Below are positions 1 through 47,761 of a stretch of 64,000 nt of DNA, piece by piece (the stretch's first letter is position 1; each line of letters opens with the position of its first letter). Below the pieces are notes generated by a model. The model saw nothing but the letters and a program-made list of their open reading frames with translations. It was not told the DNA's origin and did no database searches. The position numbers and the translations under genes are program-made. Source of the stretch: an uncultured archaeon (GTDB taxonomy: Archaea > Aenigmatarchaeota > Aenigmatarchaeia > CG10238-14 > SCSR01). Location: positions 54,275-118,274 of the forward strand of contig CAZICS010000001.1 in assembly GCA_964537835.1 (NCBI GenBank), given 5' to 3'.

Positions 1-1
1 G

Positions 2-235: not shown

Positions 236-243
236 GTTTTTAT

Positions 244-540: not shown

Positions 541-2477
541 ACTTTTAATTTTTTAAGTTCGTTCAACAATTTCTTTTTCCTTTCGATTTGGCTTTCTTTA
601 GCTTTTCTCTTAACTTTTTTTCTTCTTTTCTTCTCTTTAGCCTTTCTCTTTCTCTCAATTTTCTTTATCTCTTCCTTTAATTTTTCCTTCAGTTTCTTTT
701 CCTTTTCTTTCTCAGGTACAACCTCCTTAGATTTCTTAACTTCTTCCTTTTTAACTTCCTCCACTTCTTCGGCACTTCTTTCAGTTCTTCCTTTCACTTC
801 TTTAGCAGCTTCTTCCTTGCTCTCTTCAATTGGTTTTTCAGTTCTTTCCTTCAGTTTCTTTTCCTCTTCTTTACTCTCAACTTTTTTCTCAACCTCTTCT
901 TTCTTTTCTTCTTCCTTACTTTCAACCATCTCTTCAACTTTCTTTTCCTCTTCTTTAACTTCCTCTTTTTCTGCACCACCAACAAACTTCTCCAATTTTT
1001 TCCATTCTTCCTTTAACTTTTCCTCTATCTCTTTAAGCTTCTTCTCGTTAGCTCTTTTAACGTTTTCATATTCTTCTTTGCTTATCCTCTTCTCTCTAAA
1101 CTGCTCTTTCAAAGATTCTAGGAATAAGAGGATATTTTCCCTTTCTCTTTTCAGGCTAATTATAGTCTCTGGAAGCTTTGTTTGGAGTAAGGGTAAAACT
1201 TTATCTATTTCATCCAACCTTTTTCTAATTTCAATCAAATCCTCTCTTATAACATCCAAATCTTTCTTACTCACATAACTTTCTAACTTTGTATTTAATG
1301 CATCAACGCTCTTAATCAATTCTTTTAAGCTTTCATCAATCTCATCTTGCTTAGCCTTATAGACCACAAACTCATCCAAACTTTTGCTCAAATCTATGAA
1401 TATCCTTTCTGTTTTAGCTCCAACTCTCTCTATATACCTTACTGCTTCCTTTACCTCATCTACTCTCTTTTGCACATCTCTTGTAACTTTCATCAAGTTT
1501 TCAATACTCCCTATAGATTTAAGAATCTCATAGACTTTGTTTATTTTTTCAGCTAGATCCTGAGACTTCCTCTCGAGCTTTTCAAGAGTTAGTTGATGCT
1601 TTTCTATTATATCGTTAAACTCTCTGAACTTCTTGTTTATTTGCTGAGGTTTTATTTCCGAAATTTCATCCTCGATCTTTTCCATTTTTACCATAGCTTC
1701 TCTCAAGCTCGCGTCTGTTTGGAAAACCATAGACCTCAATTCCCCAATATTCTCAGAAAGCGTTCTTATAGTCTCATCTGTTGCTTGCTTAGCTTCCCTA
1801 ATTGTATCGATCATAAGCTTTAATTTCTCGATTTCTACCATCGCATCGCTTTTTACCCCCTCTTTTTCTTCATAAGTTTCAGTGGGAGCTACAGGTTGAG
1901 TTTGAACTTCATATACAGATTCAGCTTGGGTCCCATAAGGAGACTCGCTTTCTTCTTTTTTCTTCCTCCCAAAAATTCTTTGAAAGAATCCGATTTTAGG
2001 TTTCTCCTCTTTTTTTTCTTCCTTACTCTCAACAGGTTTTGCTTTCTCCTCTTCAATTTTTGCTTGAGCTAGTTCTTCTGCAATCATCTCTCCAACAGTT
2101 TTCTCTTCACTTGCTTCTTCAGATTTTTCCTCCTCTTTAACTTCTTTCTTCTCATCCTTTTTTGTTTCAACTCCTCCCTCTTTTCTAACTTCCTCTCTAC
2201 TTTCAACTTCTTTCTCCTCTTCCTCAACTTTTTGCTTTAATTTAAGCTTACTTCCCCCAATTTTTTTCTCTATCTCTTTCAATCTCTTCAAATACTTTTC
2301 TTTCAACTCTCGATAACTTTTCTCCGAAATATTGGCCTTCCTGTACTCATCTTCAAGATAACCTATCATTTCCTCCAAGTCTCTTTTTTCCTTCATTAGA
2401 TCTTCTTTAACTTCTTTCCTCTTTTTCTTAACTTTCCTCCTTTTTTTTCTCGCTATTTTAACCACCCAACCTCTCAA
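537..2477 (-). CDS. K/E-rich coiled-coil protein with two SHOCT-like motifs. The start is uncertain: the ORF track gives TTG at 2477, and in-frame ATGs lie near 2399 and 2369.
   Basis: Long ORF with extreme Lys/Glu content and KEE low-complexity flanks. The central ~300 aa has heptad-like coiled-coil character. Motifs ANISEKSYRELKEKYLKRL and KRISKEEYENVKRANEKKL match the SHOCT-like pattern of the two small upstream proteins. It is on the same strand as the giant ORF, immediately downstream, and overlaps its stop. Confidence 0.6.
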   Translation of the reverse strand: MRGWVVKIARKKRRKVKKKRKEVKEDLMKEKRDLEEMIGYLEDEYRKANISEKSYRELKEKYLKRLKEIEKKIGGSKLKLKQKVEEEEKEVESREEVRKEGGVETKKDEKKEVKEEEKSEEASEEKTVGEMIAEELAQAKIEEEKAKPVESKEEKKEEKPKIGFFQRIFGRKKKEESESPYGTQAESVYEVQTQPVAPTETYEEKEGVKSDAMVEIEKLKLMIDTIREAKQATDETIRTLSENIGELRSMVFQTDASLREAMVKMEKIEDEISEIKPQQINKKFREFNDIIEKHQLTLEKLERKSQDLAEKINKVYEILKSIGSIENLMKVTRDVQKRVDEVKEAVRYIERVGAKTERIFIDLSKSLDEFVVYKAKQDEIDESLKELIKSVDALNTKLESYVSKKDLDVIREDLIEIRKRLDEIDKVLPLLQTKLPETIISLKRERENILLFLESLKEQFREKRISKEEYENVKRANEKKLKEIEEKLKEEWKKLEKFVGGAEKEEVKEEEKKVEEMVESKEEEKKEEVEKKVESKEEEKKLKERTEKPIEESKEEAAKEVKGRTERSAEEVEEVKKEEVKKSKEVVPEKEKEKKLKEKLKEEIKKIERKRKAKEKKRRKKVKRKAKESQIERKKKLLNELKKLKV

Positions 2478-3560
2478 TCCTCTTTTCTATCGATTCTAAG
2501 TAAGTTTCTGCCATTCTGAATGCACCTGTCTTAATCTTATCCTTAGCTATGTTAAGCTCGATCTCTATATCATAAGTGTCGATCTTCTTTTTCTTCAACT
2601 CCTCTATTTTCTTCTCGAACTCCTCTATTTTCTTATTTAGTTTCACATATTGATTAATTTCATCGTCTGTTAGAGCGAATGGTGAGTGTAGCAATGGCCT
2701 GAAGCTAATGAACCATGGTTTTCCATAGTTATACTCTGGGTTCTGGAACAGTCCAGTTCCTATGGTAAGCTTAGTAACCTTAGAAGCATAGTCAGCACCA
2801 TACTTCGATTTAACCCTTCCTATATCTCCTTCATACTTGGTTCTTAGCTGGATTTCGTTTGCGATATTTGCTCTTATTGCTCCCTTGAAATCTAGTAAAA
2901 CTTGTGAAATTAAGAATAGACCAATTCCCCACTTTCTGAATTCTCTGCAAGCTCTTTCTATGGCTACATAACCTCCCTTCCCTCCATATTTTGGCAACAG
3001 CCTGTGAACCTCATCGTATACTAACAACAGCTTAATTTCTTTAGATTCAGGAGGTCTCATGTCGAATATGGCTTGAATGCTTCTTCTGACAAATCTGTCG
3101 AGCTGCTCTGGTTTGAGTCTGTTCATCACGAACACGGTGATTTCTCCAGGTCTCATGTACTTCTTAATATCTATTGGCATATCTGGGTCCTCAACCAGTA
3201 CTATGTTAGTCTTGAATCCTCTTGCATCAGTTGGTTTCAATCCAAACTTTGGATAGAGGTCAAGCATAGCCTTGAGTCTGCATGGTTTCATGAAACCAGT
3301 CCATTGAGCAGTTGGGTCAAATACTATTACAGGAATCTTTCTCTTTAGCAGTTCTTCTGCACAAACCATTGCAGAGACAGTTTTACCAGATCCAGTACCA
3401 CCCGCAGCTATAGAATGCATTATTAGTTGAGACAAGTCAAGGTAAGCTTTAACATTAGTTTCAGCTATTTTTCCAACCTCTATTGAATTGGGCCCAGGCT
3501 GAGGCAATTTCTTAAATTCTACAGGAGCAATATACCTTGCTTTAGCAGCTTTAGCAGCTC
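2458..3560 (-). other. Cytoplasmic HerA/FtsK-superfamily (DUF87/AAA_10-like) P-loop ATPase domain at the C-terminus of the giant protein.
   Basis: Walker A IAAGGTGSGKT is encoded at about 3381..3419. A D-P-x-x-x-W motif (VIVFDPTAQWTG) follows it. Walker B LLLVYDEVHRLLP is encoded at about 3007..3033. The domain lies right after TM2 and ends in a K/E-rich coiled-coil tail (KLNKKIEEFEKKIEELKKKK). Confidence 0.65.
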
Positions 3561-6500
3561 TATAAGCAGCTATCCATTTCATTCCTATTATAATGGAAGG
3601 AATGCCAACGAACAAGATTATGTAAGTTAACCAATGCATGAAAATAGTTCTTAAGATAAATAGCGGCAATGGCAAAACAGTTACATCAAAATTGTCTGAA
3701 GCAGTTGCATACTTAGTTCCATACCAATAGGTTGCATTCACTTCTATCAGATACTTACCTTCTGGCGTATCCTTTGGAATTTGAATACTCTCTCTATAAG
3801 TTAAAACTGTCCTTACTGCTTTAGTTTCCTTGCTCGTTGTTATTACCTTACTTGGATCGTACAAGGATCTTATGGTGTAGGTTACTGTTATATCCTCAAT
3901 TTTCTCGGTTTGACCCATGTTTATTAGCTTAACTTCAAAAGTTAGATTTTGTCCAGGATTTACAGCTTTTGAAAGTGCAGTTACCTTTACGTCTAGCAAT
4001 GGCTCTAGAACGGATTTAACAGTAATGGTTACCGGTATTCTATCCTCTACATCACCAGCTTTAACTACTATGTCACCAGTATAAATTCCGGGTGCTATGG
4101 TTACTGGAGCATAAGCTCTTATAGCTGTTGTTCCCAAATCTTTTGGACCTACGTTAAACACAGGCTTTTGAATGGTTAGGAGTTGAAATGCAGGACCTTC
4201 TACGGTTATTCTTACGCTGATAGTTTTGTCGAGATTATTGGTTACATGGATGGAGAACAATTTTTCTTCTCCTGGTACTAGAGTAGTTTCTAATAAAGTT
4301 GACTTAATTTCTACAGGAGCTAGAGTAACGTTTGCCCCACCAGGCCCAACTCCAGGAGGTATGGCAGGAATTGCCGGCAAGGTGATGGAGGGTGCAGCAC
4401 CTGCTGCGGGAGGAATTACTGGAGTGGGCGCAGGTGGTAATGTAGGACAGTCGGTTGGGCAATTATTAGTCGATTCTCCATATTCACTTTCACATTCCCC
4501 GTTTCCACAAATAAATTCAGCTATTATGTAGGCACCAGTTAAATCAGTTAAATTGGCTTTTACATAGAATGCTGATAAGTTAACTGAGTTATCACTGTTA
4601 TCTCTGTTCGGATTTGTAATTCTTACCCATAGGTTGTTTTGAGCGGTTGTTATCTTTGAAGTCCAATTTCCTCCATACTTGTAAATTCCTATCCTAGTTG
4701 GGTCATAAATAGGAACATTGCACCCACCTTCAACACAATCTGAAAAGTTTATGTATAAAATTGAGTAAGATGGTTTGAGAATCGTGTAAACATAAATTGA
4801 TTTAATTGCACTACTAGTCATTCTTACTGGAGGAATCTCTCCAAATATTATCGGGTTGAAGTAGTTTTGAGTTAAGCTCAAATTGTACATTTCTATTCTA
4901 TGAGTAAATCCAAATTCTTTAAGCTGGATTTTTAAATCATATGATTTTGCATCTATAGTTTCATTGTAATAACCAGTAGTTAGGTTTGGACCAAAATCGA
5001 ACCTAGTTATGTTTGTACCCACGTCAAAGAATGTGAAATTAAGATTGATTGGAGGTTCGCCCAAAAGTTCAACATTCTTTGCATACCCACTAAATATAAC
5101 TGTCGGGTAAATCTCAAAAGTTTTAGTTTCAAGAGCACAATTTCCTGAAAGGTCACAAGCAGTTACATTTATAGTATAATTGCCCAATTGAGAGGTATTC
5201 GAGAAGTTGAATTCGTATAAGTAAGTATCATCGGCTTTTGAAACAAAAGTTAAAGTAATTTTTTCAGTTGAATTGTCAGGGTATTTAATAGTTCCGCTCA
5301 CATTCTTTATTCCACCTGCTTCTACTATACTCGCCCTTATGTTTACCGTAGAGTTTGCAGGTATTCTTACAGGTATTATTAAGGTTATGAGGGGTGGTAC
5401 GTTGTCCTTATAAACTATTGAATCCTCTTCTACATCACTCCTAACCAATACCCTTGTTCCGTTATAAGTAGCAGTTATATTCAAGCTATAAACTCTAGCT
5501 ATAGCTAGGTCAGGAGCTATAAATCTAACTCTCCACAATTTTTCTGTACTGTTGTAGAAAGCTAGGCTAATGTTTGCGAATTTTGAAATAGTGGAATTGA
5601 ATATAGAAACGTTAAAGCTTACGTTTTGAGTTACATAACTTGAGTTTGCACTTATGTTTACCTTTGCTTCAACAGTGTCGTTTGGAAGTATTCCTGTTAA
5701 GGGTTGGACTTTTGTCGGATAAACTATTTTAACCTTGTAGACACTAACAAACATGCTTACAAAAGTTGTTTGCATTTTAACAGAAGCATTTTCTCTTAAT
5801 GCACCTGTAATATTGCTTATTATAGTTCCTGTATAGTTTGTATCATAGGGTATATCTGGAGACGAATAGTTTATATAAACCGTCTTTTGACCAGCATATG
5901 GTAAAGTAATTTCACTTTCACTCAATCTTAAGTAAGATTTAATCGTTCCATTAACTACCAAACTCAAGTTTATCTCAGCATTTCCTGTATTTATGATAGT
6001 TAAACTTCCAAAGTAGCCAGTATCATTTTGTAAAACACTTCTATGAATTTCTTTTTCCACATGTTCCCAAGAGATGTTAACAGGGACGCTTATGTAAATT
6101 GGTAGGTAAGCTGCTTTACCATTCCAACTTATTTCTATACTTCCATTCCAGGTCCCTGTTTGATAGTTAGTTGGAACTTTAATGCTTACATTAACCTTTC
6201 TCGTCTCCCCAATCGGAATCAAAGTGAAATTACTTGGTTTAAACGAAACGTTAAAGTCTTCACATACTTTCCCACTCTTACACGTTATGCTTACATTTGT
6301 TACATTCTCATTTCCTATAGATTTCAAGGTAAAGCTTGCATTTCCTATACTTCCACCAGGAATTATCTTGGTTATATTATCTTCTAAAACTCTAAGCTTT
6401 GGATTTGGCGTAACATTTATTAAGATGCTCTTCCTGCTTGAATTATAGGTATTGTTAAGATTTCTCCATCTTGCAGTCAGGTTTATGTAGTAAATTCCTG

Positions 6501-9500
6501 CTTTAGTACCGTTTGGGATTATTATTTTGGTTAGGTTAGATTTAGAAGTCCACTTAAGAATAGTACCAAATTTGAAGAAGTCCGGTGTAGCACTTACATT
6601 GCTAGAAGAATTTATGGTTAGGTTAGAATCGAAAGCTCTTGAACCGCCAGTATTGTTTAGAGTAATATTAATCGTGAAGTTCTGACCATACTCGATTGTT
6701 ATATCATCTGCCGTTATTACTGAAACATTCGGCAATATTTCTAGCCAGGTTGTTGCCGAACCTTCTACAGCTGTTGGTGAAGTACAAGCTTGTAAGGAAC
6801 GAGTATCGTTTGCACATATTCTAATCAAGTGAATACCTTCCATGAGACTTATATAAGTTGTGTTATAAATATCTCCTGCAAACTTCTCCATGAATTGAAT
6901 GTAGGTGGAACCGTTCGGTAGGGTTACATTTATCCATGCTTTATCAACAGCAAAGTTATCTGTTATCTTTGCTTGAACTGTCACATTTTCATAACCAATT
7001 TCGAATACAAGCGGTTTGATCAAAACATCAGTAATAATTGGTGGGATGTCCGTTACATTTAAGGTAATGTTTGTAATTCTTTCAGGTGGATTTGCAAAAG
7101 TTACGTTTCTTATTACTATTTTTACTGTATAAATTCCCTCTATAGCATTTGCAGGAACACTGTAATCTACGGTAACATTTCTTGAAATCTGTTTCTCTAG
7201 ATCAAATGCTCTAGTTTGAGGAACTCCTGCAGGATAAGCTGAAATAAAGATACTACCATTTCCTTGCTTTAGAATTTCGAACGGTATCTTAACATTTCCT
7301 ATGTTCTTTACAGTTATATTTCCTATAGTACCACTTGTATTCAAAGGCAAGAGAACTGTTCCAAATGTTTCTGGCTCTCTTAGCCAAGAAGTATTCAAAG
7401 GTATGCTTATATTCAAAAGCATTTCATCAAATCCAGCATTGCTTGTACTTGCTCTTATCTTAGTCCAATATATGCCTGGAGATTGACCAGCAGGTATGGT
7501 TATGTAAATATGGGAGAGCATGCTTTCTCCAGCGAGTAATAAGCCAGTTTCGCTTGGATTAATAGTCAAAACACATAGAGGACAATCTATTGCAAGATTT
7601 CCTCCTACTGCACTCAACTCAACATCCCTAAGTTCATCATTTCCAGAGGCTATGGTTGTTACATTCCCAACATAAGTTGTTGCATCATGAGGTGCCGTCT
7701 TGTTTATACTCTTTGGAGTAATTTCTACCACTGGGTTTGAAGAGACAGTTATTGAAGTTAAGTTTGAAGCATAATCTATTGAAAGATCAGGATTTCTCCA
7801 AGTTGAGATAACATAAGTTCTTATTAGCTGGGGTGCTGTTTTAGCTGGTACGGTAACTCTAAAGGTCCAATTACAAGATTGGCCAGCGTAAAGAGTTCCA
7901 CATTCTTTTCTAGTTTCGTTATAAACCAGAGAACCAATAGGTTCTTCTTGATGAGTTAGATTAACCGAATAAGCAGTAGCTGGTCCAAGGTTAATGAACG
8001 TAACGTTTACTTCAAACGTAAAGCTTTGGGTTTGTGTTATACCATAGGCTACTATTTCTTGAGGTTCTTGTTTAACTAAGCCAGAAATCTTACCCCAAAC
8101 GCTTAAAGTACCTACAAAAGTACTGTTGATGTTATATTCTGGTCCAGCATCCTTTGCGTATACCGTAACATTATAGGTTCCTCCTATTGGTGGAGTATAA
8201 ATTGCTCTATAGGTTGCTTTGAAGAAACCAAAGCTTTCTTCGGGTACAGTAATGTTAGACATCGGAAGTATTACTGGTGTGCCATTTGGCATGGTTATAT
8301 TTGCCCATGCGGAGACTACCCGATAATTATCTATTATAGTTGCAGTAATGTTTGTTGAGTTTAAGTTTGCTTCTATGCTTGAATTGGGTAAGAGCGAGGT
8401 ATTATAAATCTTGGGAGGTTCTATATCTTTAACCCAAATAGTTTCTGTAGCTTCTTTTATATTTGCTGAATAGTATTGGGTAACATTATCACCTATCTTG
8501 CATTTGAATGTAATATTTCCTTTTTGTTCTGGAGTAAAGTTATAGCTTGCATAACCAGTGACATTAGTCTGATAACTCCCATTGAATATGTATTCAGTAG
8601 AAGGCTCCCACTTGTAAGAGAAGTTGACAGTATAATCAGAAATTCCAGCCTTGGACACGCTATCTTCAACTTTACAGGTTGGTGCAAAAGTATTTGGATA
8701 GGGAACTATTCCTGTAGGCGAAATCCAAATTACATCTGCTAAGCTTGTTATGATTATGCTTACATTATCTATTCCATCATCGTAGTAGGGTAGGGTTGCG
8801 ACTGCCATTATTTGATGCGGTCCTGTCTTTTGTTCAGCAACTATTGATTGAGCCAAGAAAGTTTCCATTCCTTCAGCAATCTGTGCAGTCTCGTTATACC
8901 ACTTAACACTTGGATTTAACTCTGCAAAACTTTCTCCATTCTCGCTAGTACCATTTGCCTTCAGAGGAATTGATTGTGATTTAGAGTAATAACTTCCATT
9001 TACAGGCTCTATTATGGTCAAATTGAGAATTCCTTTTATTGTTATGATAGTTGTGTTTGTATCTGAATCCTCATTTTGTGGTCGAGTTGCATTTATGTAA
9101 AATGTATACGGGCCTGGTATCCATGTGTCAGCTACATTAAAGTTGATTAAAGAGCACCAACCGCTTGAATTTGTTAAGCAGCTATCCAAGAAATGAGTTG
9201 AATTATAGAAGCTAACGTTTGCATTATCCGCATCCCCTATTCCTGCATCTTTAACATGAACGCTTATATTAGTTGCATGAGGACTGAATGTATCATTTCT
9301 ATAAATCCAAGCATATTGGCTCACTATTTTGTCGATTATTAGCGGTCTTGATAACCTAATCCAAGTTTCTATCTGCGAAATTGAAGTATTATAATAAAGA
9401 GTTGAATTATCCTCTATTGCACAAGTTAAATTGTACCATCCAGCAGCTTCTCCGCTTGTATACCAAGTAAGACTTGCATATCCATCAGCATTTGTTAATC

Positions 9501-12500
9501 TTATTCCTAATAGTTCACCATTCTTTAGGAATTTAACCGAATAATTAGCTATAGATTGAGTAGTGTTACTATCTCTTACATGACAGGTAATTGTTATTGG
9601 CACACCTGCTGAAGAACTTGTTCCATTGGATGGAGAAATAGAATCTAATTCGCTCCATCCATATATGTAAACTAAGCTACTGTTGCTATTAGAGTCATAA
9701 TATTCCCTTGAAGCGTTCGCATAAATTATTTCGCTACCAAGCTTGTAATTCTCTGGGACATCCCATAGAGTATTATAACCACTTGCTAAGAGATGCCAAC
9801 TAGAATTATACCAGTTTATGGTTGCATCTGCTATTTGCTGATTACAATCATCGCTTACGCTGGCATTCAAAGTAGTTTTAATCCCCCTATTGATTATAGT
9901 TCCTGTTAATGGATGAATAAGTGAAACGTTCAATTGACCATAAACTGTTAAAGTAACGTTTGATGTGTTAACAATCTTATAACAGCTAAATCCATCTTTT
10001 TCTACAGTTCCACCAATCCAGTATTGTTTTCCAGCTATAGTATCGCAAGTTGGGTCATGGTAAGCGTTACAATGACCGTTCAAGGAAGTACAGTTATATG
10101 CTAGCGTATAAGTTGATCCATCTTCAGTAACCCAAATGGTTCCGTTGGCTCCGGTAACATAAGCTCCATTATCTGAATCATAAATTATAAATTCTAGGAA
10201 TGCCTGATTATTCCCTATCCTTCTTACACTTGAATTGCTGGCTGGATTTATGCTCAAGCTTACATCATCTCTTTCCAAAGTAATATTTTTAGAAATTGTT
10301 TCGTCAGTGAAGTTGAAAGGATCTGTTGTATTGAATTTGTAGTAGAGATAAGGAGATTGTCTAGCATAATCTTCGCATGTAAATCTATGTTTAAACGTAA
10401 CGTCTACGCTTATTCCTTGAACGCTCTTCGACTCAACCAAATACCAAGTTATATTGTCATAGCTCTTCCATAAGCTTAGATTATTTATATTTAGGTCGGC
10501 ATCTGTGAAAGTAACTGTAAAGGTATAGAGTTCTCCCCAACCTCCGAATGAGTGGTCAACTCTTGGGTTGCTTAAAGAAGGTTTATCTCCAAGGAAGAAT
10601 GCCTTTACCTTTAGTGTGGAGTTGCTAGCATAATAATCTTTGCTTACATCCATACTAACATTATACCATCCTTTTGGCTTTCCTGCTGTGCTTTTCGTAC
10701 AATTATACCATCCTTGTCCTTCATCCCAGCCATCATTATCTGCTATAGTGCACTGATAAGGAGAACCCACTTGAGGTATGAACGTATAAACAACAGTTGC
10801 ACCTTCAACAGCTTCACATTCGTCATGTAAGCTTCCATTTATGGATACAAGATCACCTCTTAAGTATCCTTCCCCATCTGGATAGACGATTGAAGGTAGC
10901 AATAGGGATTTAATTGTTAGAGTATAATTGGTTGAGTTCTTATCCTTATAACAAACATCATTATAAACTCCGCCAAACCACTTTTGAACACCTGTTTTGA
11001 AGTCACATCTTGTTTGCCCAGGAGGTAACTCTAGCGGGAATTTATAAATCAAGTTACTTTCTAGGTCTGTTTCTGTAATCTTTTGGCTAGCAAAAATATT
11101 ACCATCCTTAGTTACCCAAAAGCTTCCATTTACTCCATAACCTGCAAGATTTCCTGAGTCCGCATCTATAACCTTTAGAGTTAAGTTTATGTAAGCACTT
11201 CCATTTCTCCAAACCCATTCGTTATCCCCGCTAACCAATTGCAAACTTACATCATCCTTTTCTAAGGTGAAATTCTTTGGTTCGATAGTAGTTTCGTACA
11301 ATTCTCCATAAAGCAATGGACTGTTAGGATCATCTGTTGCATTAAACTTGAATTCCCAAATATGTGGATAAGGATCGTCTCTGCTTGCTTCACAGCTCCC
11401 TCTTGTCCAGCTTAGGGTTACAGTTTTGTTTATAACTGGAGAATCTAAATTCGTTTTATTTGCTTGAATCCAACTAGTTGAACCATACCTTCTTACGTAT
11501 AAAGTTAAATTGACAAAATCATAATCCTCATCTGTTACTGTAACATTGAAGTAGAACCTTTCTCCCCATCCTCCAACCTCACTACCTTGAGCAGATATTA
11601 CAGAGAGATTAGATAAAACTGGTTTTGTTTCTATGAAGAATTCTTTTGTTCTTGTTATAGACCTATTGATGAAGTATGGACCTGAAACGTTTATCCTTAC
11701 ATCGTACCATCTTGCCTTCATGTCAAAAGTATTTCTGTTACATCTATAAACTCCTGTTGCAGGGTTTGTTATTTCTGTACAACTATAACTTTTACCCGTC
11801 TCATTATGGACAGCTTCCATGGTTATTATAGCTGGGTCTATCTCACCACCACAGTCATCCTTTATTGCTACCTCTTCAGCAATTCCAGGATAGCCTGCAT
11901 CCAAAGTTACATTTTCTTCTGAGCGTAAGACTGTATCATCTGTATAATCTCCTTGTCTATATCCACTTGGATAATAGACGAAATCTCCATATATTTCTAA
12001 AGTGTAGTTTGTTGTATTTTGTTGAATAAAGCAAGCATCAGTCACACTCCCTTTCCATTTCTGCAACCCAGGATAATAATTACAGTCTGGATTGAAGTAA
12101 TAGGTTACGTATCCAGAAGAGTTTGTTTTATTAGTTTGCGCTAGGAAAGTGCTTCCATCTTTGGTTACATAGAAGGTTACTGTAGCATTATAAGCTGGAA
12201 CATTTCTATCTGTGTCATTAACTCCTAGTACAAGCAAAATAGTATTTCCTATATCGCTATCAGACCTATTAACCTTAGAATTATTCCCTGAAATGTAATA
12301 GATTACTACATCATCTTTTATTATGCTTGGAGCGGGTATGTTGCTAGTATTAAATATGTTTGTTCCATCATCGATTTGCCATTTGAAGTAAACCAAGCTC
12401 GTATTTATTTCACTACATTCAAAATTACTAACGTTTACTTCACATGTTCCTTTTCCATTGTAAACAGTGTCATTACCTCTATAAACCCAACCCTTTGAGG

Positions 12501-33500: not shown

Positions 33501-36500
33501 AAAATGTGGTAACCGCAGCAGACCTATTAACTATGGAATTGGGAGATGGTGTTATGTTATAAACGTTTACATCATCCTTCTCCACGCTATAATCCTTTCC
33601 ATCCAATTCAGAATTTCCGTCTGCATTACTTGCATTGAACTTGAAATGCCATGCTCCTATATCGCTTGGCAAGTAATCATAAGTAAAGTTATGCTCTTCC
33701 CATTGCAAGCAATCTATACAAGTCCAAGAATCGACTAAGCTATAAGTTCCTCCAGTCTTCTTATGCCATAGGTAAACAGTTACATTCCTCCCAAACCTAT
33801 CCCTTACTTTTACGCTAAAGTTAAACTCCTCTCCCCACCCTCCTACGCTTCTAGAAGAATCCCCATTTATATAAAGAGTAGCATTCTCAAGCAAAGGAGT
33901 ATAGGTATAAACTTTTACCTTAACAAACAACTCTTGACTTTCGTTAAACAACTTACCATAACTCCAAGTATAATTTATCTGGCTAATCGTAACATTTGCA
34001 AATTCAGACTGAATACCGTCAGCATATGCATGCAACTCCATTTTTCTTGCTTTTGAAACAAAGTTGATAGATGGATAATAAACGACGATAGCTTTGCCAT
34101 TGTAATTTGCTAGGCTATAGTTTTGCCAAGTATAAGCATAATTATCTGAATCGTCTAGCAAGTAAACGTAGCCTTCACCTATGGTTAAGTTTGATGAAGA
34201 GAAATTGTAGAGTATGGTTAGATTAATGTTTGAAATTTTTTCATAGGGCAAAGAAGGATCGTTAAATATATGCGTTACTTGGCTAGTGCAATCGCTTCCT
34301 GAGCAACTATAAGAAGTGCTATCGCTATAGGAGATTTCATTTCTTGTATCGTTTAATGCTTCTACTCTAAACAACTGTTTTCCAGTTTGAGAACAGTTCA
34401 AAGTAAAGTTCAAGTAAATGGAGCTCCTGCTTGCTAATCCAGAAATGTTCCATGCTATTGAATTTTTAGTAGCGTTTATTACGCCTCCATCATAAGCATT
34501 AATTATTTCGCAAGTCGATGGAATGAACAATTCGACGCTCCAATTACCGCTTGTTACATCCCCTATGTTAGTAACTTTCAAGCTGAAGTTGTAGGTCATG
34601 TTTGGCTGGATGCTTCTAGGTTCCTCCCAGGGATAGGTTTCTCTTTGAATGGCTATCAAATTAAACTCTAGATGAGATTCACCCGAATAATTTGCTGTAT
34701 AGAATTTATAGTTTTCAAATTCTCGTAATTGTTTATTACCATCATAAGTTAAGTTCCACCGAGCATAACCCTCTTCAGCGTTGCTAACAGGTGCTTTTAT
34801 CTGATAGGATAGAACAGCATATTTATTAATGCCAATACTTCCAAGTTGCCATGTTATTAGATTATTCTCTAGGTTGACGCTTGTTGAAACCAGCTGAATA
34901 TCTCCTTCTATTCCTGGGTTTGCCGGAGTCCACCCAGGCTTAATGTTTTCTTGTAAAGTCAAATTATTTACTGGAGCACATCCCTTGTTGTGAACTATTA
35001 GCTTGCTTTCAAAAACTTTGCTTGCTCCTATGTAGCGTGGAGTTTCTCTTATTACTTCAATAACTCCTTGGTTAGCATTAGTCAGGCTTATGTTTTGTTT
35101 TGTTGTAGCTTGCTTATGAGGTAATTGGTATACAATTGAAACATTTAGGTTAGCTGTTTCTTCTGAGCTAGAAGAGGTTAAATTAAATTTAGCTTCATAA
35201 GTTTTTTCTTCATCAGCATTTATTAAAATGTAGGCTGGAGAGTAACTCCATCCAGAAGGAACTTCTAAGCTAACATTATAAGTAACCTTATCTTGATAAG
35301 CATGAGGTATCAAAACTTTCAGGCTTTCGGTAGTTGAAGGACAAATGTATGGATTATATCTTGTCTCATAACTTACATTCTTCCTTACTATACTCTCTAT
35401 TAACTGGCTTGAATTTCCATCATAGAAAATATAAGCTTTTATGTAATAAGTTCCAGCAGACCAGCCACTAACATTTATGTTTTCGATAGCTTCGCTGGTT
35501 ATAGCTCCTTGTGCCAAAGAAACTGTTTTATGAGTGTAGTTTACCACATTGTTACTTTCATCTGTCAGATTAACCCAAAGGTCTGCGTTTATCGTCTGAG
35601 CCAGAGAATTGAAAATTTTTACAGTAACATTTAGGTAATTATCTGCTAAATCTAAACTATAAGTTTCACTTTCGCTTACAGAAGGAACTATATCAACAAC
35701 TTTTGCCTTTCTTTCAAGATACGCTTTCATGGTCGCAGAATTTATTTGCACCTCATTTTCTCCTAGGTTTTCTATTCTAAGCAAGCAATGTCCAGTTCCA
35801 TTCGGTGAAAGGAATTGTTTAATCAATCGAATATCCTCTGTCACATCCCCAGAAACTGGAAGATAGTTTACTATCTCAACAAATTGAGTTGAGTTATAAA
35901 TGTAAATTCTAACTTCACTTCCAGCACTTGAATTCATTCCCATTGTAAATGAAGTTAGTCTATAATCTGCAGCTAGGCAATTAAATGCTAAATCTTGATG
36001 CTCATCGGGCGAAACTGTTAAAGGTAATGAGCTGGATGGGCTTGCTTGATAGTATTCATAATTTTTAACAAAGAATGAAACAGAATCCTCTATTCCGAAT
36101 GAATTGTTAACTTTAATCGTTAGGTTAAATCTACCAGAAGTAGTTGCGTTTACAAGCCAGGTAACATCTTTTGTAGAACCTTGAGCAACACCTCCTAAGT
36201 ATTTAACTCTATTATCAACTTGCCATTCTGAGGGTGCAATCAATTCGGCATAGACTTCGCTCGAGTCTGCTACATAGCTTGTTATCGTTGCCTTGATAGT
36301 AAAGTTTTTGTATTGTAAGGTTTCGTTAGGATGATAATAAAATTCAATCGAAGGAGTTGCCTGACAGCCGGTTAAATCTAAAGTTATGGTGAAATTCTCG
36401 CTAATGTTGTAATTATAAGCAGGGTCATCGCTAGCTATATAAGCACGCCATTCTTGATTTCCATTAACATATTCACAAGTTGGTTGGAATTCTAAGGTTG

Positions 36501-39500
36501 CGTAGCCGGCAGAATCTGTGTAAGCATTTCCTATAACCTTTTTACCTTCAGGATAATTAGCATGCAATAATTCAAAGGTTACTTTTGCGCTTGGAGTTAA
36601 ATTATAAGTTTGTGCTATCAAGTCATAAACTTTAACAGATAGATTGACAGCTTGGCTTAAGCTTGCTAAAGAATTATTTCCTTGATCTCCGTATTCGATG
36701 CTTACATTATCTTTGGTTAAAGTAAAGCTGTCATAACCAGAGGTCGATTCTGTAGCTAACTCAAACTTAAAGAACCAAGTTCCTATATCCTGATAGGTGA
36801 AATTCTTGTACCAATAAATTTGTTTGTTCAGGCAATCAGGATATTTGCAAGTCACTGGAGTTTGATTAACACAATCGCTACATTCGGTAAAGCCTGTGGG
36901 CGAAGTTTTTGCTAGCAAGATCTTCACATCATTAGGATTAGTATCACCGCTTGATGCAATCACGCTGAAATTCCAATTCCTATATCCCCAGCCATGGGAA
37001 GTTGGAACAACCTGCGGATTTTCAAGCTTATAAATCGGATAAAGATAGAATAAACCATTTTCTCCATAATCAGCAGTTTGGTTTGGATAATGGTATTCCT
37101 TTTCTGCCATCATAGTTGTATTATACCAACCCATTGGTGTAGTTATGTTAGTCTCCCAGTCGCAAGTGAAAGCGTTTGAACCTACTTGCGAAACTGGTGT
37201 GCATTCAAAATCTTGAGTTGAATGATTTGCAAAATATCTTACATTCGCTGTTAACGCATCACCACAATCATCTGTAGTTGCACCCAAGAAGCTTATCACA
37301 TCCTCTTGCGTGTAATTAACGCTTCCATCAGGCTTAACAAAATCTAAGATTATATCTCCTTTTACAGTTAGATAGGTTGGGATGTAATCAGAAGAATCGT
37401 TCGAGAAATAGCAGTTAAGCATTGAATCATTAACAACAACTTTCCATTGCTGCTGACCAACTTGGAATTTGGGTGCACCTTCATAATCTCCGCTACAAGT
37501 AGGGTTAAAGTAAAGTTTTACATATCCATCTGAATCGGTCAAATTCTCAAAGTTTGAATCAGAATAATAAGTTGATCCATCGATAGTTACATAAAACTTG
37601 ACTGCAAAATTTGCCAGATAGCTTGAATTTTCATCTTTAACTCTAAATTCTAATAGGTCTACTTGATTTCCTCTTCTATTTGCGATCGAATTATTACCGT
37701 AAATGTATTCTAGGTAAACCTTTTCTTTAGTTATTTCAAACTGATGCTCTGCAGTTTCATTAACGTTTGAAGAATTATCTTCAATTCTAAACTTATACTT
37801 AGCAACTGGGGTTATATCTGAGCAGCTAAATCTTGCAGTAAAATCTATTCTTTTCCAATTTGAACAGGCTAAGCATTGAGTTTTATTGATTTCTTTCCAT
37901 CCAGATCCAGTGTCTACATACAAAGTAATGTTTAAATCATCGCCTTCTCCATCCATTACTTCAATTGAAAAGTTCCAAAGAGTTGCCCAGCCTGCTGAAG
38001 CACCTTCCGTTACTCCATTAACACTTTCATTCGCATGCTTTGGCGGCCAGTTTACGTTAACATAAACCGTGAAATTGTCAGAGCGGTTGTATGCATAGCA
38101 GCTTGAAAGTATAGTGTCTACATAGCCATACCATCTTCTAGTTCCTGTCGTGAAATCTTGGTCCGGAAGGAAGTAGAAGTAAACATGACCAGAAGAATTC
38201 GTTTTATTATTTCCCACATACTTTTCAGGACCCTCATAGCTTGTTGTTGTAACGTTAAACTTTATATAAAGGTCTTCGGTTATTTCTTCAGTTGGATAAT
38301 CTAGATCTTTTGCTTTTAAAATAAATTCTGCTGGTGTTAAAGGTGTTGCAGTAGTTTCATTTCCTGAAACATATTCAATAACTATACTATCTTTTGAAAT
38401 ACTGAACGCTTGAGGAGTAGTTTCTCTTGCATTCCCCTCCGTATCTGTAACATTAAACTTGAAGTTGCGCGAAGGATTAGCAAGATCTGAGCATGTATAA
38501 TTCTTTGTCCACCATAGAATTGTTCCATCACAATTTGTACATTGCTTTGGCTGACCTATTTGAACCCAATTTCCTGAGCCAGCTGGAACTTCTTCCCAAA
38601 GATAGACTGTATCCGTATCTCCCGCATTATCAGTAACATTTATAGTAAAGTTTCTCTCTATACCCCATCCACCAGATGAAGGTGTTACAGTTGGATTATT
38701 AAGAACTGGAGCAAACTTAAGATAGAATGCATTTTCCTTAAAGTCGTAACCATCCCAGTGTTTTGATTTATTAGAAGTCATGGTAACATTGTACCATCCT
38801 GTAGGTGCTCCAGAAGGTAAGGTTATTTCCTTGTAATAAGCCCCCTGTTCAGCTGAATAGAAAACTTGGGTTGAGTAAGTATAAGTGCCGTGGGTAAGAT
38901 TAAAGTAAACAGTAGCATCAGTTATAGTATTTCCACAATCATCGGTTACTGTTCCTTTTAATGGTATAGAGGAATCTTGGGTATAATTGGTTGAACCATC
39001 AGGAAGTAGGATTTGATTAGTTAAAGAACCCTTGAGGAAGAAATCCATCTCACTAGTTGCATTATCTTCCCAGCATACATCATCTTTAACTCCCATTTGC
39101 CACTTGTGGGTTCCTAAATAGTACTTGCTCGTATCACTACACCAGTCATAATGGCTAAATTCTTGCACAAAATATCCTGTAGAGTTAGTGGAAACAGGCC
39201 ATTGGCCAATTTGATTATAAGAATAAATGGACATGTTAAATTTACCGGTAGCTCCATCAGCAGGTTGGTTTAAAGTTGTGTCTTGGACATGAAGTATGAA
39301 TTGAGTTTTTGAAGCACTCCTGTTAATTGTTGCATCGGCATTGGGTGTAATCAGTGTTATAGCATCCTTATTTTTCTCTAAAGTAATTGTCATTATGGGA
39401 TAATCCTCTGGCTCAAAATTCCATGTCTGATTTCTCGTGCATCCACCTCCATTACAATCGGTTGAGTCATCTGTAGCATTAAAGAACCATTCCCATACAT

Positions 39501-42500
39501 TTGATTGGGCTCTGTCAGTGCATGTATAGGTGTAAGTAAGGTTTACGGTACATGGTGAGGATTGAGAACAGCTAGAAAGCCAGTTTGTTTGATTTGCTAA
39601 GATCCATGTTGTCGAACCATAGGGTCTATGCCATAAGTAAACTTTTATACTATCTCCCTGTTTATCATAAACTTGGACATTAAAACTTCTCCTCACACCC
39701 CAACTATCAGATTGAGGAACTGCATGAGGACTAATAAAATGAGGTCTTGTATCTTTTCCACACCAAGTATAGTTTATTTTATACGATGCCATTCCACCTC
39801 CATTTCCAGATGATTGGAGATGTATAGTAAATGGAAAATCACTCTCAGTGTAAGTTCCTGATGGTACATCACATGCACCAGGATAAGTTCCTGTATCACA
39901 TGCACTACCTCCACAAGATGTTGCTAATCTATTTGTTCCACCGCTGACACAAGTATAAGCTTCACATTCCTGTCCATTATCAACATTCCTACACCATGGA
40001 TATCTTGTGGTAGAACCATCAGAAAAGCTAACGTAATGGATACCTCCAGTAGCACCACTTTGTGAGCTAATTGATGCCCAGGCATGAATCCATATTTCGT
40101 TTATATAACAATTTATAGTATCTTCTCTACACCTACCCTCAGGAGTGAAGTAATAATCGTTTCCACTACCAGTCGCTGCATGTCCAGATAGTGGTTCTTC
40201 GAACCATAAGCAATATTCATCGCTTGCTGGAGGGTCCGTAAGTAGAAGCCATCTTCTTGCTTCTTCATAAATCCTACTATCGTAAACAATTCTTGCTCTA
40301 ATCTCGTAAAGATAAGGATATTTCACTGGTGTCTTAAAAGTATACTGAACAGAGCTTCCATTAGATAAGTTCCAAGAAATTACTTTGCTATTAGAGGTTT
40401 CGTCTAAAATACCGGACGTATTTAAAATTTCAAAATCTGTTGGCAAAATTTCTTGCAAAGTAAAGTTAGAAATATTCTCGAAGGAAACAACTTTCATGCT
40501 GGAGAAGAAAGGAGGTAGTAATGGGTCTATTCTTATGGGTGTAGCTCTTATGAATTGGAAGCTTATGTTCTTTTCTACAACAAAATTAGAATAAATGTAG
40601 CTGTTTGTGTCCTTTCCTTTAACAACAGCAAATAAGGAGTAATTACCAACTTCCAATGTTTCATTGAAGAAAGCATAATAAGTTCCTACCTTCCCTTCTT
40701 TTATGCTTCCATCTTTTGTTGAAAGGTAGTAATGTTTTCCCGAGGGAGATTCTATAGTTAGTTTTATATCAGCTCCTGAAACTGGCTTTCCTTCATCATC
40801 GACAACAGCAAATAAAAGCTTAACACTTTCACCTGGATAATATCTATCCCTTTCCGAGTTAACAACAATGAGCCCCTGCTTAATTATAATATCTCTTTCA
40901 TGAATACCGTTGGTCAAATGTATCTTGTAGGGACTTAATCTAAAAGATCCTCTTAGATCTAACTTTACTCTGTAAACTCCTGGTTTAATTTCATCTACTT
41001 CTAGGAATTCCAGTGATAATTCTTCTTCCCTCCATTCTAGACATTCATTACTTTTCTTGAGAAAATCTTTGAAAATAGCAAATAAACTAGAGCTTAAAGG
41101 TAGAGGATTTGTTGCATTAAGTTTCTCTGGAGAAAATGCTATTTTTATTCCTCTTTCATCACTTTCTACATAAAATTCTGGATTTGGGACATAACAATTT
41201 AAAACCCATCCGAATTCTTCACTCTCCATCCAAGTGCAAGCGTAGGTTGAAATTACATGAGTTACAGAGGAAAGAGATGGTATGATCCATTCTAAAGTAT
41301 CAGGAATTTCGTCTTCATCCGTATCCAAAAGCGTATAGTTAAGGCTATAGTTAAACAAGCTTACTTCAAGGTCGAAGTCTTCTATTCCTTCTGGGATTTT
41401 AGTCCTTACTCTTATATTCGTATAATGCAAGGGGGCAGAGACATTTACTATTTTCTTCCAACCACTGTCAAAAATTATCTCTTCTTCCTTAATAGGGGCT
41501 GGGGTTGAATAGCTTACGATATATTCCTTGAAGCTTTCTGAAGGGATACGGGTTATGAGGAAGTAAGTTGAATTTAACCTAACTATTGGAGTTTCATTTT
41601 TTTCTATAGTAATATTAAAAGCCAATGGAGTAATGTTGAAGGTAGCGTTATATTCTTCCATATAAGAAGGTGTTGTGACTCTTACTATTTTCCTCCATCT
41701 TACTGGAACACCTACTATGGCTTCATCCTGTATTTCTTCTGTGTTTATTTTCACATCCTCGCAGATAACAAGAATTTTGATTAATTCTTCAAGCTTAGCT
41801 CTATAACCCTGAGCAAGGATCGAAATTTCTCCTAAACCACAAGCTTGAGCTGAAAAATTCAGTTTAACTTCCTTGCTTTCATCGGGAGAAGTAAACTCTA
41901 AAGGAAAGCTCGAATTTTCAAAAACTTGCTCGTCAACCTGAGCATTTAAAAACTCAAAACCTGTATAATTTATTGTAAGATTAATGAATGCTAGCGTACT
42001 CTTTAAAGTAAAATTGACAGAAAATTCTTGACTTAGGTTTAGTTTTTTGGGATAGGATAAGTTTTCTATGAAAATTAGCGGCTTAACTATTTTGAATGAT
42101 TTATTAGGCATAGAAACATTAAAGTTACCAAAAATGTCTCCTGCAAATGTTCTTCTCCACGTATAATTTCCTTCTAGTTGGGATGAAAAAATTGCCACAT
42201 ATTTTTCTCCAATCTTGTTTGTGGTTAGGTTAAATGTTTCGTTCGGTGATTCGACTTCAAACAATACCTGTTTAACTTTTATGTTATCCTCTACTCTTGC
42301 TGAAAGGTTAAGGGTTTCACCTATGTAAAGAAAATCTGTGCTTAATTCCTCATCATAGATTAAAGGAGCTTGCTTATCAGTTACGTTTACCGTTAAATTA
42401 AAAGCAGTAAAATTCTCAATAGAGTCTGCCTTTCCAAGAACTAGATAGGTGCCATTTTCAGCGAATAAAGCTTGAATTTCTAATAAAAAGGTTTTGTTAA

Positions 42501-46574: not shown

Positions 46575-46633
46575 AGGTTTTTACAAAGTTACTCATCAAT
46601 AAAAATTTAACTTAAATTTTTGAAAACTAAATT

Positions 46634-47758: not shown

Positions 47759-47761
47759 AAA

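Follow-up and report, generated by a model that had tools for sequence, protein, structure and literature searches.

A 14,236-residue SPEARE-family protein with a membrane-bound winged-helix domain and a putative self-cutting Hint domain in an uncultured aenigmatarchaeon

Background

DPANN archaea live in attachment to other cells, and the SPEARE proteins are the main molecular candidates for the means by which they cling to these cells and feed. Here we ask what is encoded by one very long open reading frame (ORF) in a stretch of 64,000 nucleotides (nt) from an uncultured aenigmatarchaeon (positions 54,275 to 118,274 of contig CAZICS010000001.1, assembly GCA_964537835.1; hereafter, the window). 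An earlier reading of the letters and their translations (the sequence-only reading) had seen in its 14,236-amino-acid (aa) product a winged helix-turn-helix (wHTH) domain, a transmembrane (TM) helix, a Hint domain, about 26 modules, a second TM helix and an ATPase, and had proposed a new class of motor-coupled, regulator-tethered surface adhesin. The locus raises the questions of whether so long a frame is a gene, to which proteins its product is related, and what a DNA-binding domain and a Hint domain might be doing at one end of a surface protein that carries an ATPase at the other.

SPEARE proteins have been studied in Nanohaloarchaeota only. They were described there as reaching 8,553 aa, with a C-terminal TM helix, a conserved intracellular domain and, in all ectodomains, at least one laminin-G domain, and similar intracellular domains had already been seen in Aenigmarchaeota, Woesearchaeota, Micrarchaeota and Altiarchaeales (Hamm 2019, PMC6642349). 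The section of a later re-analysis that deals with these proteins gives them a signal peptide, about 75 immunoglobulin (Ig)-like domains, a TM helix, a “VirB4/TraG-like” ATPase and a coiled coil; that section makes no mention of laminin-G and finds the SPEARE proteins themselves to be without protease or nuclease domains (PMC10266531). Examples named in these two sources are Ca. Nanohaloarchaeum antarcticus NAR1_1133 (5,998 aa), those of Ca. Nanopetramus SG9 (up to 8,553 aa), SVXNc_0300 (9,409 aa) and BNXNv_0298 (8,880 aa). The published views of the cytoplasmic domain, as a restriction enzyme or as a VirB4/TraG protein, conflict.

Results

To judge from its sequence, the giant protein of the window very probably belongs to the SPEARE family. 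Its C-terminus (TM-proximal cytoplasmic segment, ATPase and coiled coil) aligns with that of the Nha. antarcticus SPEARE protein at 40% identity over 359 aa (BLASTP, E 3e-104), and its two membrane-proximal domains do so at 27% identity over 193 aa (E 1e-12); the reference sequence was taken from Fig. S18 in the supplementary information of Hamm 2019 (PMC6642349). A homologous core in the same domain order is what places the giant in this family, so that the earlier view, by which this ATPase and such a repeat array are not found together in any described family, fails, and the label of a new class with it. The accompanying suggestion of a motor-coupled surface adhesin for host attachment equals the reading already proposed for SPEARE proteins.

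The likeness extends to a huge extracytoplasmic array of Ig-like domains, NEW3-like membrane-proximal domains, a single TM helix before a cytoplasmic P-loop ATPase, and a coiled-coil tip, as well as to hosts that are DPANN symbionts with several paralogues per genome. Protease and nuclease families were not found in Pfam scans of slices of the giant protein, in agreement with what the SPEARE section of PMC10266531 reports. The giant differs in being longer than any SPEARE protein named in PMC6642349 or in that section, in having a wHTH-TM N-terminus and a Hint-split domain where SPEARE proteins are there given a Sec signal peptide followed by beta-propellers, and in being followed by a coiled-coil gene where SVXNc_0299 is described as a second VirB4-like ATPase (PMC10266531). 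It also has no laminin-G, protease or toxin-like region detected by Pfam, and it is not halophilic, its ectodomain being only mildly acidic.

Relatives of the segment made up of the second TM helix (TM2) and the ATPase number in the hundreds, at 50-87% identity, in metagenome-assembled genomes (MAGs) of DPANN archaea. A scan of species-representative genomes, one per species, gave at least 589 matching places, and an exhaustive search of 1.84 billion cluster representatives gave 371 clusters at E<1e-30. Loci (L numbers) were studied for the best 80 of the at least 589 places with at most 10 kb of flank, so that lengths of relatives are lower bounds. These 80 come mostly from Aenigmatarchaeota, the others being labelled Micrarchaeota, Woesearchaeota, Nanoarchaeia, Altiarchaeota, “Nanohalarchaeota” and Haiyanarchaeum; in 71 of them no stop interrupts the frame upstream of the ATPase before the available DNA ends, and in 40 it stays open over the full 10 kb (>3,333 aa). 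Among the best 150 of the 371 clusters, proteins of 356-7,665 aa have the ATPase as their C-terminus or close to it. Short complete members of the family (P0063, P0109, P0084; P numbers denote proteins) present a minimal form with a signal peptide, one or two NEW3-like domains, a TM helix, the ATPase and a coiled coil. The shortest ectodomains in the family have about 100 residues, the longest more than 13,000. The comparison shows the family core to be the last 620 residues of the giant, namely two NEW3-like domains, the TM helix, a HerA-clade ATPase and the terminal coiled coil. Paralogues were seen in one MAG (assembly CAZYZB01), where L008 has an open frame of >3,700 aa and L082 one of about 730 aa, a pair that echoes the four SPEARE versions of Ca. 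Nanopetramus SG9.

The 42.7-kb frame itself is, we have scarcely any doubt, a genuine gene of a DPANN archaeon. The ORF listing gives, as the sequence-only reading had stated, a single uninterrupted frame of 14,236 codons; it starts with ATG and lies on the minus strand, which that reading had not named. It has no internal stop, whereas the other frames of this strand contain 1,261 and 1,521; from base composition, the probability of so many codons without a stop is about 1e-473. The translation, high in Thr, Ser, Asn and Tyr, runs from wHTH, TM helix and Hint domain through the module array to TM helix, P-loop ATPase and coiled coil. The longest exact DNA repeat within the gene is 82 nt and the best protein identity between internal repeats is 61%; the repeats of the module array are diverged and, by their sequence, old. 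In five further assemblies the C-terminal 2,300-3,500 aa are collinear in one high-scoring segment pair (HSP) and one frame; L005 aligns at 72.5% identity over 3,436 aa and L004 at 69.7% over 3,506 aa, each in one HSP, and L085 is collinear with aa 1757-3863. The stop-free frame, the diverged repeats and the collinear orthologues in other assemblies together make the case for the gene. That the frame could instead be an artefact (a mis-assembly, a collapse of separate repeat genes or a decaying pseudogene open by chance) is almost certainly wrong: short-read assemblies do break at repeat-rich genes, the N-terminal homologues P0122 and P0123 stop at contig ends, and frame changes split the orthologue in L001, but to these points stand opposed the stop-free probability, the shortness of the exact repeats, the coherent order of unique N-terminal, inserted and C-terminal segments, and the open, collinear frames of the relatives. 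L001 (JGI 3300050342, contig Ga0527077_0545, 1-11203), with an ATPase 83-85% identical, is the closest relative on a long contig.

At 14,236 aa the product is among the largest archaeal proteins; according to a survey, archaeal proteins of more than 10,000 aa are rare and mostly from Asgard archaea (bioRxiv 10.1101/2023.11.21.568195). The nearest relatives of both of its ends are from Aenigmatarchaeota MAGs, which bears out the small-genome archaeal host that had been proposed.

Averaged over 19 residues, Kyte-Doolittle hydropathy rises above 1.8 in just two segments of the whole protein (aa 92-116, TM1, and aa 13836-13868, TM2), each flanked by Lys/Arg-rich sequence on its proposed cytoplasmic side. 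The stretch between these helices contains all 654 N-x-S/T sequons (203 expected from composition); the two ends, 459 residues together (91 before TM1 and 368 after TM2), contain none, where about 22 would be expected at ectodomain density (P ~3e-10). This pattern is as expected for a predicted N-glycosylated ectodomain with both ends in the cytoplasm. The TM assignment rests on hydropathy and sequon distribution, and with the charged flanks these agree with the two-TM topology, cytoplasmic ends and sequon-filled ectodomain of the earlier description.

About 13,700 residues are thus extracellular, in roughly 130 beta-sandwich domains at about 105 aa each. A hidden Markov model (HMM) built from one module copy has 32 matches within aa 1796-12107, of which 23 are near full length and 9 partial, so that the earlier count of about 26 modules was a fair estimate; the period is about 335 aa, the copies that align share 20-56% identity with the reference copy, and two copies of an insert of about 500-700 aa break up the array. 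A structural model of the module, made with 22 aligned copies (predicted local distance difference test, pLDDT, 85), consists of three tandem sandwiches of Ig- or macroglobulin (MG)-like type with conserved Cys pairs, and Foldseek matches it to MG domains of complement C5 and alpha2-macroglobulin and to adhesin extender repeats. Pfam scans (slices over the whole protein at E<=0.01 with the best 25 matches per slice, and six sub-slices at E<=0.1) list only beta-sandwich families in the ectodomain: Big_1, Big_3_5, MG2, NPCBM_assoc/NEW3, DUF11, CARDB, PKD and Big_3_3. Enzymatic, toxin, laminin-G and beta-propeller regions were considered and rejected on this basis. From the domain type, the DPANN lifestyle and the SPEARE literature, the ectodomain may be pictured as an extended glycosylated fibre of some 130 domains, perhaps 0.4-0.5 um if extended, that would serve host attachment.

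At the other side of TM2, the predicted ATPase carries Walker A (GGTGSGKT) and Walker B (LLLVYDE) motifs and scores 45.4 bits against DUF87 (cut-off 23.2) and 28.6 bits against HerA_C (cut-off 22), consistent with the HerA/FtsK type named in the earlier reading. Both families match 16 of 16 family members. A profile of these 16, searched against the PDB, returned HerA-type chains only (HerA 4d2i, YjgR and HerA of defence systems; best E 7.7e-10), with no VirB4, VirD4 or FtsK chain among them. The T4SS-DNA_transf, TrwB, AAA_10 and FtsK profiles match 8-10 of the 16 more weakly, around the P-loop (on the window ATPase, T4SS-DNA_transf reaches 24.1 bits over 60 residues around the P-loop only), and ResIII matches 12 of the 16 weakly, a similarity of the P-loop only. 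The best NCBIfam matches, to CedD, HerA and CedB, are very weak and far below the family cut-offs (HerA models, 25-38 bits against 800-970); TraD and TraC models give 12-19 bits against more than 360.

On the strength of these profiles we class the predicted ATPase as a distinct family within the HerA clade of the FtsK-HerA superfamily. With the translocases of that superfamily it shares a RecA-type core, the Walker motifs and the DUF87/HerA_C signatures, and with VirD4/TrwB, FtsK/SpoIIIE and CedB the order of a TM anchor followed by an ATPase; VirD4/TrwB are coupling proteins, and the Ced system is crenarchaeal. It differs in having no HAS-barrel (the ATPase core begins only about 28 residues after TM2), no NurA neighbour (the downstream gene encodes a coiled-coil protein), no FtsK gamma domain and no type IV secretion neighbours, none of those families appearing in Pfam scans of nine neighbouring ORFs (537-2477 and 45774-55226); moreover, its “anchor” is a 13,700-aa ectodomain. 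Both published assignments were rejected: the VirB4/TraG-like label in the SPEARE section of PMC10266531 because the PDB profile search gave only HerA-type chains and VirB4/VirD4 models stay far below cut-off, and the type III restriction enzyme of PMC6642349 because the signatures are those of the HerA clade. The P-loop likeness to ResIII probably explains the latter label.

The coiled-coil gene is a regular companion. A core of about 300 aa follows the ATPase directly in about 72 of the best 80 loci at 25-78% identity; Pfam and PDB profile searches assign it to no family and match it to generic coiled coils only, and NCBIfam gives just a weak SMC-like coiled-coil match.

Close behind TM1, a beta-sandwich domain is interrupted by a 160-aa Hint domain (Table 1). 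Uninterrupted copies of this host domain were found by tblastn of fetched loci in other DPANN surface proteins (L055, L080, L057), which makes the Hint domain an insertion in a loop, as inteins are; Pfam gives no match to the host domain, and a large-database search with its “spliced” form returned no matches. The Hint part is modelled with pLDDT 75-90, and the PDB structures that match it best are inteins and bacterial intein-like (BIL) domains (6zgq, 6tmm/6y75, 2lwy of C. thermocellum and 1mi8; probability 1.0, target-normalised TM-score 0.66-0.76), with the BIL domains 6tmm, 6y75 and 2lwy among the top six. Sequence searches are weaker, a single Hint slice giving chance matches only against PDB sequences, and so the fold comparison was needed. 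The Pfam Intein_splicing family is seen, below its gathering score, in the slice at E 2e-6 and in 7 of 7 homologues, which NCBI labels “Hint domain-containing protein”; with the fold matches, this upholds the Hint call of the sequence-only reading.

In the seven homologues, only 53-60% identical to the window over the Hint slice, Ser243, Thr305/His308, the Asp and His of block F and Asn402 are invariant, and so are the penultimate Ser401 and the +1 Leu403. Of the features of class 1 inteins, the fold, N-terminal Ser, TxxH and C-terminal Asn are thus present, and the +1 Cys/Ser/Thr and penultimate His are absent. BIL domains are defined by the missing +1 nucleophile; those of type A, which have a block G with C-terminal (His-)Asn and lie in non-conserved surface or secreted proteins, splice somewhat, but cleavage products dominate (PMC4031507). 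With no Cys, Ser or Thr at +1 the canonical branched intermediate cannot form, and retention of Ser1, TxxH, block F and Asn alongside that loss points to cutting rather than splicing. By its sequence and by analogy with type A BIL domains, we would give slightly better than even odds that the Hint domain self-cleaves, mainly cutting its precursor. The window domain resembles BIL domains in its Hint fold, its N-terminal Ser, TxxH and C-terminal Asn, its missing +1 nucleophile and its place in a variable surface protein, for which autoproteolysis is the expected outcome; it differs in being archaeal, in ending Ser-Asn instead of His-Asn, and in lying near the N-terminus, inside a beta-sandwich beside a membrane anchor, where bacterial ones stand upstream of a C-terminal toxin. 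The SPEARE ectodomain and TM/cytoplasmic part were found in different gel fractions (Hamm et al., PMC6642349), an observation on the other protein end that makes processing of such proteins plausible.

The N-terminal wHTH foreseen by the sequence-only reading is borne out by HTH_IclR, above its Pfam cut-off, and by Foldseek matches of its model to MarR-family structures (probability 1.0). The first 470 residues match eight clusters with wHTH, TM helix and Hint-split domain, all from Aenigmatarchaeota-type MAGs, and also sixteen clusters of small proteins (267-350 aa; P0129-P0144) with a wHTH, a TM helix, a stalk and one CARDB-like domain. In L085 and in L086/L087 such a small wHTH-TM-CARDB protein (282-287 aa; including P0129 and P0131) is encoded by a separate gene before the giant gene, and the giants there carry an N-terminal signal anchor of their own. 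The small gene's stop overlaps the giant gene's start by 11 nt, with the ATG upstream of the stop (L085, 8001-8849 and 8839 onward; L086/L087, 8001-8864 and 8854 onward), which suggests translational coupling of the two predicted genes. L085 shares the window neighbourhood of GH57, glucose-6-phosphate isomerase (GPI), GDE_C and HTH_24 genes.

P0129 aa 1-188 corresponds to window aa 1-190 at 54% identity, the L085 giant aligns from window aa 453 onward, and the segment between them (aa 190-455) is exactly the Hint-bearing domain. The alignments show that what appear as two coupled genes in sister genomes are one gene here, with the predicted Hint domain at the joint. Its presence exactly there argues that the tether would be cut rather than kept covalent. 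Of the regulator tether proposed earlier, the wHTH domain therefore stands, yet it is no recruited domain: it is a conserved neighbour gene, fused here. The split and fused forms are a natural experiment which, as far as sequence goes, indicates that the wHTH-TM and giant proteins work together. A regulatory role may be presumed for the wHTH.

Upstream of the gene lies a perfect 18-bp palindrome (Table 1). Its form, TTGTAC-N6-GTACAA, recurs 3-18 nt before the ATG in six loci (the window, L083 at 9980-9997, L084, L085, L086 and L087), with one arm mismatch each in L084 and L086/L087. The centre hexamers differ (GCTAGC, ACCGGT, GAATTC, GATATC), each being itself palindromic, and the innermost bases, which could not pair in a hairpin, are still symmetric; this symmetry favours a dyad-symmetric DNA site over an RNA stem-loop and raises the question of whether the palindrome is a candidate operator for a dimeric wHTH protein. 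A divergent gene for an HTH_24 protein holds the same position beside the giant or wHTH-TM gene in L083-L087. In the window and in L083-L087, the intergenic region between the divergent genes carries recurring TCGACA(A) boxes; TTCGACAA boxes are not enriched window-wide (4 found against 1.5 expected, a number reached in 7 of 100 shuffles), and the claim is limited to local conservation.

Discussion

Taken as a whole, the observations are best explained, with a probability we put at about 0.6, by a SPEARE-family fibre that would bind the host cell, be anchored through its ATPase and have its wHTH stub released by a Hint cut. The precursor would insert through TM1, export the ectodomain and stop transfer at TM2. 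The Hint domain would then cut at Ala242/Ser243, and perhaps also after Asn402, leaving a 242-aa membrane-tethered wHTH stub and a fibre held only by TM2 and the ATPase, a state that would mirror the two proteins of the sister genomes. The ATPase would form a membrane-anchored ring by analogy with its relatives HerA, CedB/CedD, VirD4 and FtsK and would power polymer transfer or remodelling of the contact, and the conserved palindrome before the gene may be a target of the wHTH or of the divergent HTH_24 protein.

Several findings weigh against this reading. The wHTH-TM and Hint parts occur in 0 of 145 representative family members and in one narrow clade, and hence cannot explain a general mechanism of the family; 115 of the 145 representatives start with Met, and 75 of these 115 have an ordinary N-terminal hydrophobic segment. 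The mean pLDDT of the N-terminal AlphaFold model is only 66. The Hint domain scores below the Pfam gathering threshold and ends in Ser-Asn, not His-Asn, and a profile of seven Hint sequences reaches a PDB intein at E 0.18 only; the domain could be catalytically dead. The Laminin_G family, stated for SPEARE ectodomains, is not among the Pfam matches listed for the slices and sub-slices. Finally, the orthologous frame in L001 is in six pieces (called as 8,615 + 123 + 401 + 123 + 380 + 66 + 400 aa, with frame changes and stops), so that the gene is not always intact; this breakage reflects either error-prone assembly or sequencing, or a decaying copy.

What becomes of the N-terminus decides between several accounts. 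Were it left uncut, the protein would be a giant loop anchored at both ends, with an inactive, purely structural Hint relic and a wHTH that, like ToxR, would be a one-component transcription factor in the membrane and would signal what state the ectodomain is in, for instance host contact. The topology, a cytoplasmic wHTH, one TM helix and an outside domain, is that of ToxR/CadC, and is the exact layout of the small paralogues P0129-P0144; the palindrome lies directly upstream of the gene, and the Hint domain lacks the penultimate His and +1 nucleophile and falls below the Pfam threshold. We nevertheless regard this as unlikely: a relic could hardly be expected to keep Ser1, TxxH, block F and the terminal Asn invariant among homologues of 53-60% identity in the Hint slice, the separate genes of the sister genomes make a covalent link dispensable, and the wHTH, in an archaeal protein whose DNA binding and regulation are predicted, is MarR/IclR/ArsR-like, not of the OmpR/PhoB type found in ToxR/CadC. 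Splicing, by which the Hint domain would excise itself and rejoin the host beta-sandwich to leave an unbroken chain of about 14,076 aa with an anchor at each end, would suit an intein-like insertion in the loop of a domain that is uninterrupted elsewhere, a fold that matches inteins, and the partial splicing of type A BIL domains without a +1 nucleophile (PMC4031507). The invariant Leu403 at +1 precludes the canonical branched intermediate, cleavage products dominate in BIL domains (PMC4031507), and the element has no homing endonuclease and is fixed, within a narrow clade, at one site, where two otherwise separate genes meet; splicing accordingly seems improbable to us. A cut would not need to part the two products at once. 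By analogy with SEA/GAIN autoproteolysis in mucins, Notch-type receptors and adhesion G-protein-coupled receptors, the halves of the cut host domain might stay together non-covalently, so that the fibre would be a mechanical contact sensor: a pull by the host would part the halves and alter a membrane-tethered wHTH acting on the palindrome of its own operon, while the HerA-type ring would drive uptake of host material. We count this a long shot; if it were true, a DPANN symbiont would have a signalling device that processes itself and links host contact with gene expression.

The cytoplasmic end invites another reading, in which the ATPase ring would pump DNA or protein across the symbiont membrane as CedB/CedD, VirD4 and FtsK do, the wHTH would handle DNA, and six fibres would make a bridge or “straw” to the host. 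DNA uptake (Hamm 2019, PMC6642349) and a type IV-like secretion role (La Cono 2023) have been proposed for SPEARE proteins. Membership of the ATPase in the FtsK-HerA superfamily, best if weak NCBIfam matches to CedD, HerA and CedB, the T4SS-DNA_transf, TrwB and FtsK profiles that match 8-10 of 16 members, the VirD4/TrwB-like order of TM helix and ATPase, and a second, unrelated basic N-terminal motif ahead of the TM helix in six other members all speak for such a conduit. All matches to named translocases are, however, far below their family cut-offs, the PDB profile search returned no VirB4, VirD4 or FtsK, and no other type IV secretion or Ced component was seen in the window or beside the ATPases of the relatives, where the neighbour is the coiled-coil gene. 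One or two TM helices per subunit with strings of beta-sandwiches are not obviously a channel, and most family members have no cytoplasmic N-terminal domain; we hold a conduit to be quite unlikely. The basic motif just mentioned is Tyr-rich and precedes the first TM helix, instead of a plain signal peptide, in ATPase-bearing proteins of 855-4,906 aa (P0229, P0232, P0257, P0266, P0176, P0268; for example MVYKKYIKRG.K.FGPYYYESYR..GKV..KYIG), so that the wHTH clade is not alone in having an N-terminal appendage in the cytoplasm. A likeness of its GPYYYESYR..GKVKKKYIG part to an Arm-type DNA-binding strand was set aside, as Pfam gives only weak DUF6788 matches, and we make no claim from it.

As a host-binding fibre, the protein invites comparison with bacterial giant adhesins with Ig-like extender regions (PDB 6xi3), in which long arrays of diverged beta-sandwich repeats likewise project a binding tip. 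Such bacterial adhesins are typically type I secretion substrates that stay anchored in the outer membrane. The window protein differs in being predicted to be inserted into the membrane by a Sec-type route, rich in N-glycosylation sequons and tied to a cytoplasmic ATPase.

The SPEARE family and its general reading as adhesins are already known, and the N-terminus is the local novelty. In the searchable literature we found neither a wHTH-TM partner nor its Hint-mediated fusion to a SPEARE giant; also absent there were a coiled-coil partner gene, an assignment of the ATPase to the HerA clade, a family of this breadth (at least 589 loci in species representatives) and a member of 14,236 aa. To the family the locus and its relatives add an ATPase core of the HerA clade with a fixed coiled-coil partner gene; a spread over Aenigmatarchaeota and MAGs labelled Micrarchaeota, Woesearchaeota, Nanoarchaeia, Altiarchaeota and others; and one clade with a membrane-bound wHTH protein, present as an apparently translationally coupled neighbour or fused through a putative self-cutting Hint domain.

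Features and neighbouring genes

Table 1. Features of the giant gene and its surroundings, in window coordinates
Feature	Position	Strand	Residues (aa)	Basis and remarks
Whole gene, 14,236-aa giant, very probably of the SPEARE family	2458..45168	-	1-14236	stop codon 2458-2460
Cytoplasmic wHTH (MarR/IclR/ArsR-like)	44974..45168	-	1-65	HTH_IclR 26.2 bits, above cut-off; pLDDT 74-88
TM1, N-in signal anchor	44821..44895	-	92-116	hydropathy 2.28; preceded by KKWGVGRKSQVK; modelled helix 89-120; sequons begin right after
Disordered stalk, N/S/T-rich, sequon-dense	44602..44820	-	117-189	pLDDT 23-43; sequence
Host beta-sandwich, N-terminal half, 5 strands	44443..44601	-	190-242	DSSP strands 191-238
Hint domain, probably of BIL type, 160 aa	43963..44442	-	243-402	Ser243 position 1; T305-x-x-H308 block B; IFDLTVPNH block F; end Ser-Asn402; +1 Leu403
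Host beta-sandwich, C-terminal half, 4 strands	43819..43962	-	403-450	model; uninterrupted copies elsewhere
Non-repeated beta-sandwich region (Big_3_5, MG2, CarboxypepD_reg-like)	39784..43818	-	451-1795	Pfam; separately encoded L085 giant starts aligning here
Module array	8848..39783	-	1796-12107	23 near-full and 9 partial copies of ~335-aa module
Duplicated insert, copy 1	34492..35994	-	3059-3559	interrupts array; DUF11/CARDB/NEW3-like beta-sandwiches
Duplicated insert, copy 2	27784..29835	-	5112-5795	same insert as aa 3059-3559
Non-repeated beta-sandwich region (NEW3, PKD, Big_3_3-like)	4489..8847	-	12108-13560	Pfam
Cys-knot-like motif, then Pro/Ala/Gly-rich linker	4333..4467	-	~13568-13612	sequence; similar linker in relatives
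Two membrane-proximal NEW3/CARDB-like domains	3664..4332	-	13613-13835	NPCBM_assoc 46 bits; family core
TM2, out-to-in	3565..3663	-	13836-13868	hydropathy; followed by KWIAAYRAAKAAKAR; conserved in family alignment
HerA-clade P-loop ATPase (predicted)	2659..3564	-	13869-14170	Walker A 3379-3402; Walker B 3004-3030; REFRKWG 2926-2946
C-terminal coiled coil	2461..2658	-	14171-14236	aligned with coiled-coil tip of SPEARE and relatives
Partner gene, K/E-rich coiled-coil protein, 646-aa ORF	537..2477	-		20-nt overlap with giant-gene end; true start probably internal
Perfect 18-bp palindrome TTGTACGCTAGCGTACAA	45180..45197			11 nt upstream of ATG
Regulator gene, 131 aa, coiled coil and HTH_24	45343..45738	+		divergent; HTH_24 32.7 bits (Pfam)

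Beyond the partner gene, window positions 1-536 hold two short coiled-coil ORFs on the plus strand with the motif GKIS.E.Y...K..L.K....L, and the same “GKIS” motif stands near both the N- and the C-terminus of the partner protein (NISEKSYRELKEKYLKRL, KRISKEEYENVKRANEKKL). The motif resembles the SHOCT oligomerisation motif; Pfam gave no match here. Many loci have, 1.2-3.4 kb downstream of the ATPase and on the same strand, a gene for a protein of about 1,910-2,050 aa (L006, offset 3385; L016, 3373; L032, 1256; L038, 1736), the last 40-270 residues of which resemble part of the partner core. Its counterpart in L001 has 1,649 aa with MG2/NEW3 matches, and a ParA/CbiA-type gene lies in between. 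The corresponding part of the cluster falls beyond the left end of the window.

Within the giant gene, an antisense ORF of 157 aa with a TTG start (29441-29914, plus strand) is most likely spurious. On the other side, positions 45774-55226 hold typical archaeal housekeeping genes, for two UbiA prenyltransferases, a geranylgeranyl reductase, a GH57 protein, an amylo-1,6-glucosidase-type GDE_C protein and a cupin-type GPI, of which the glycogen and GPI genes are syntenic with L085.

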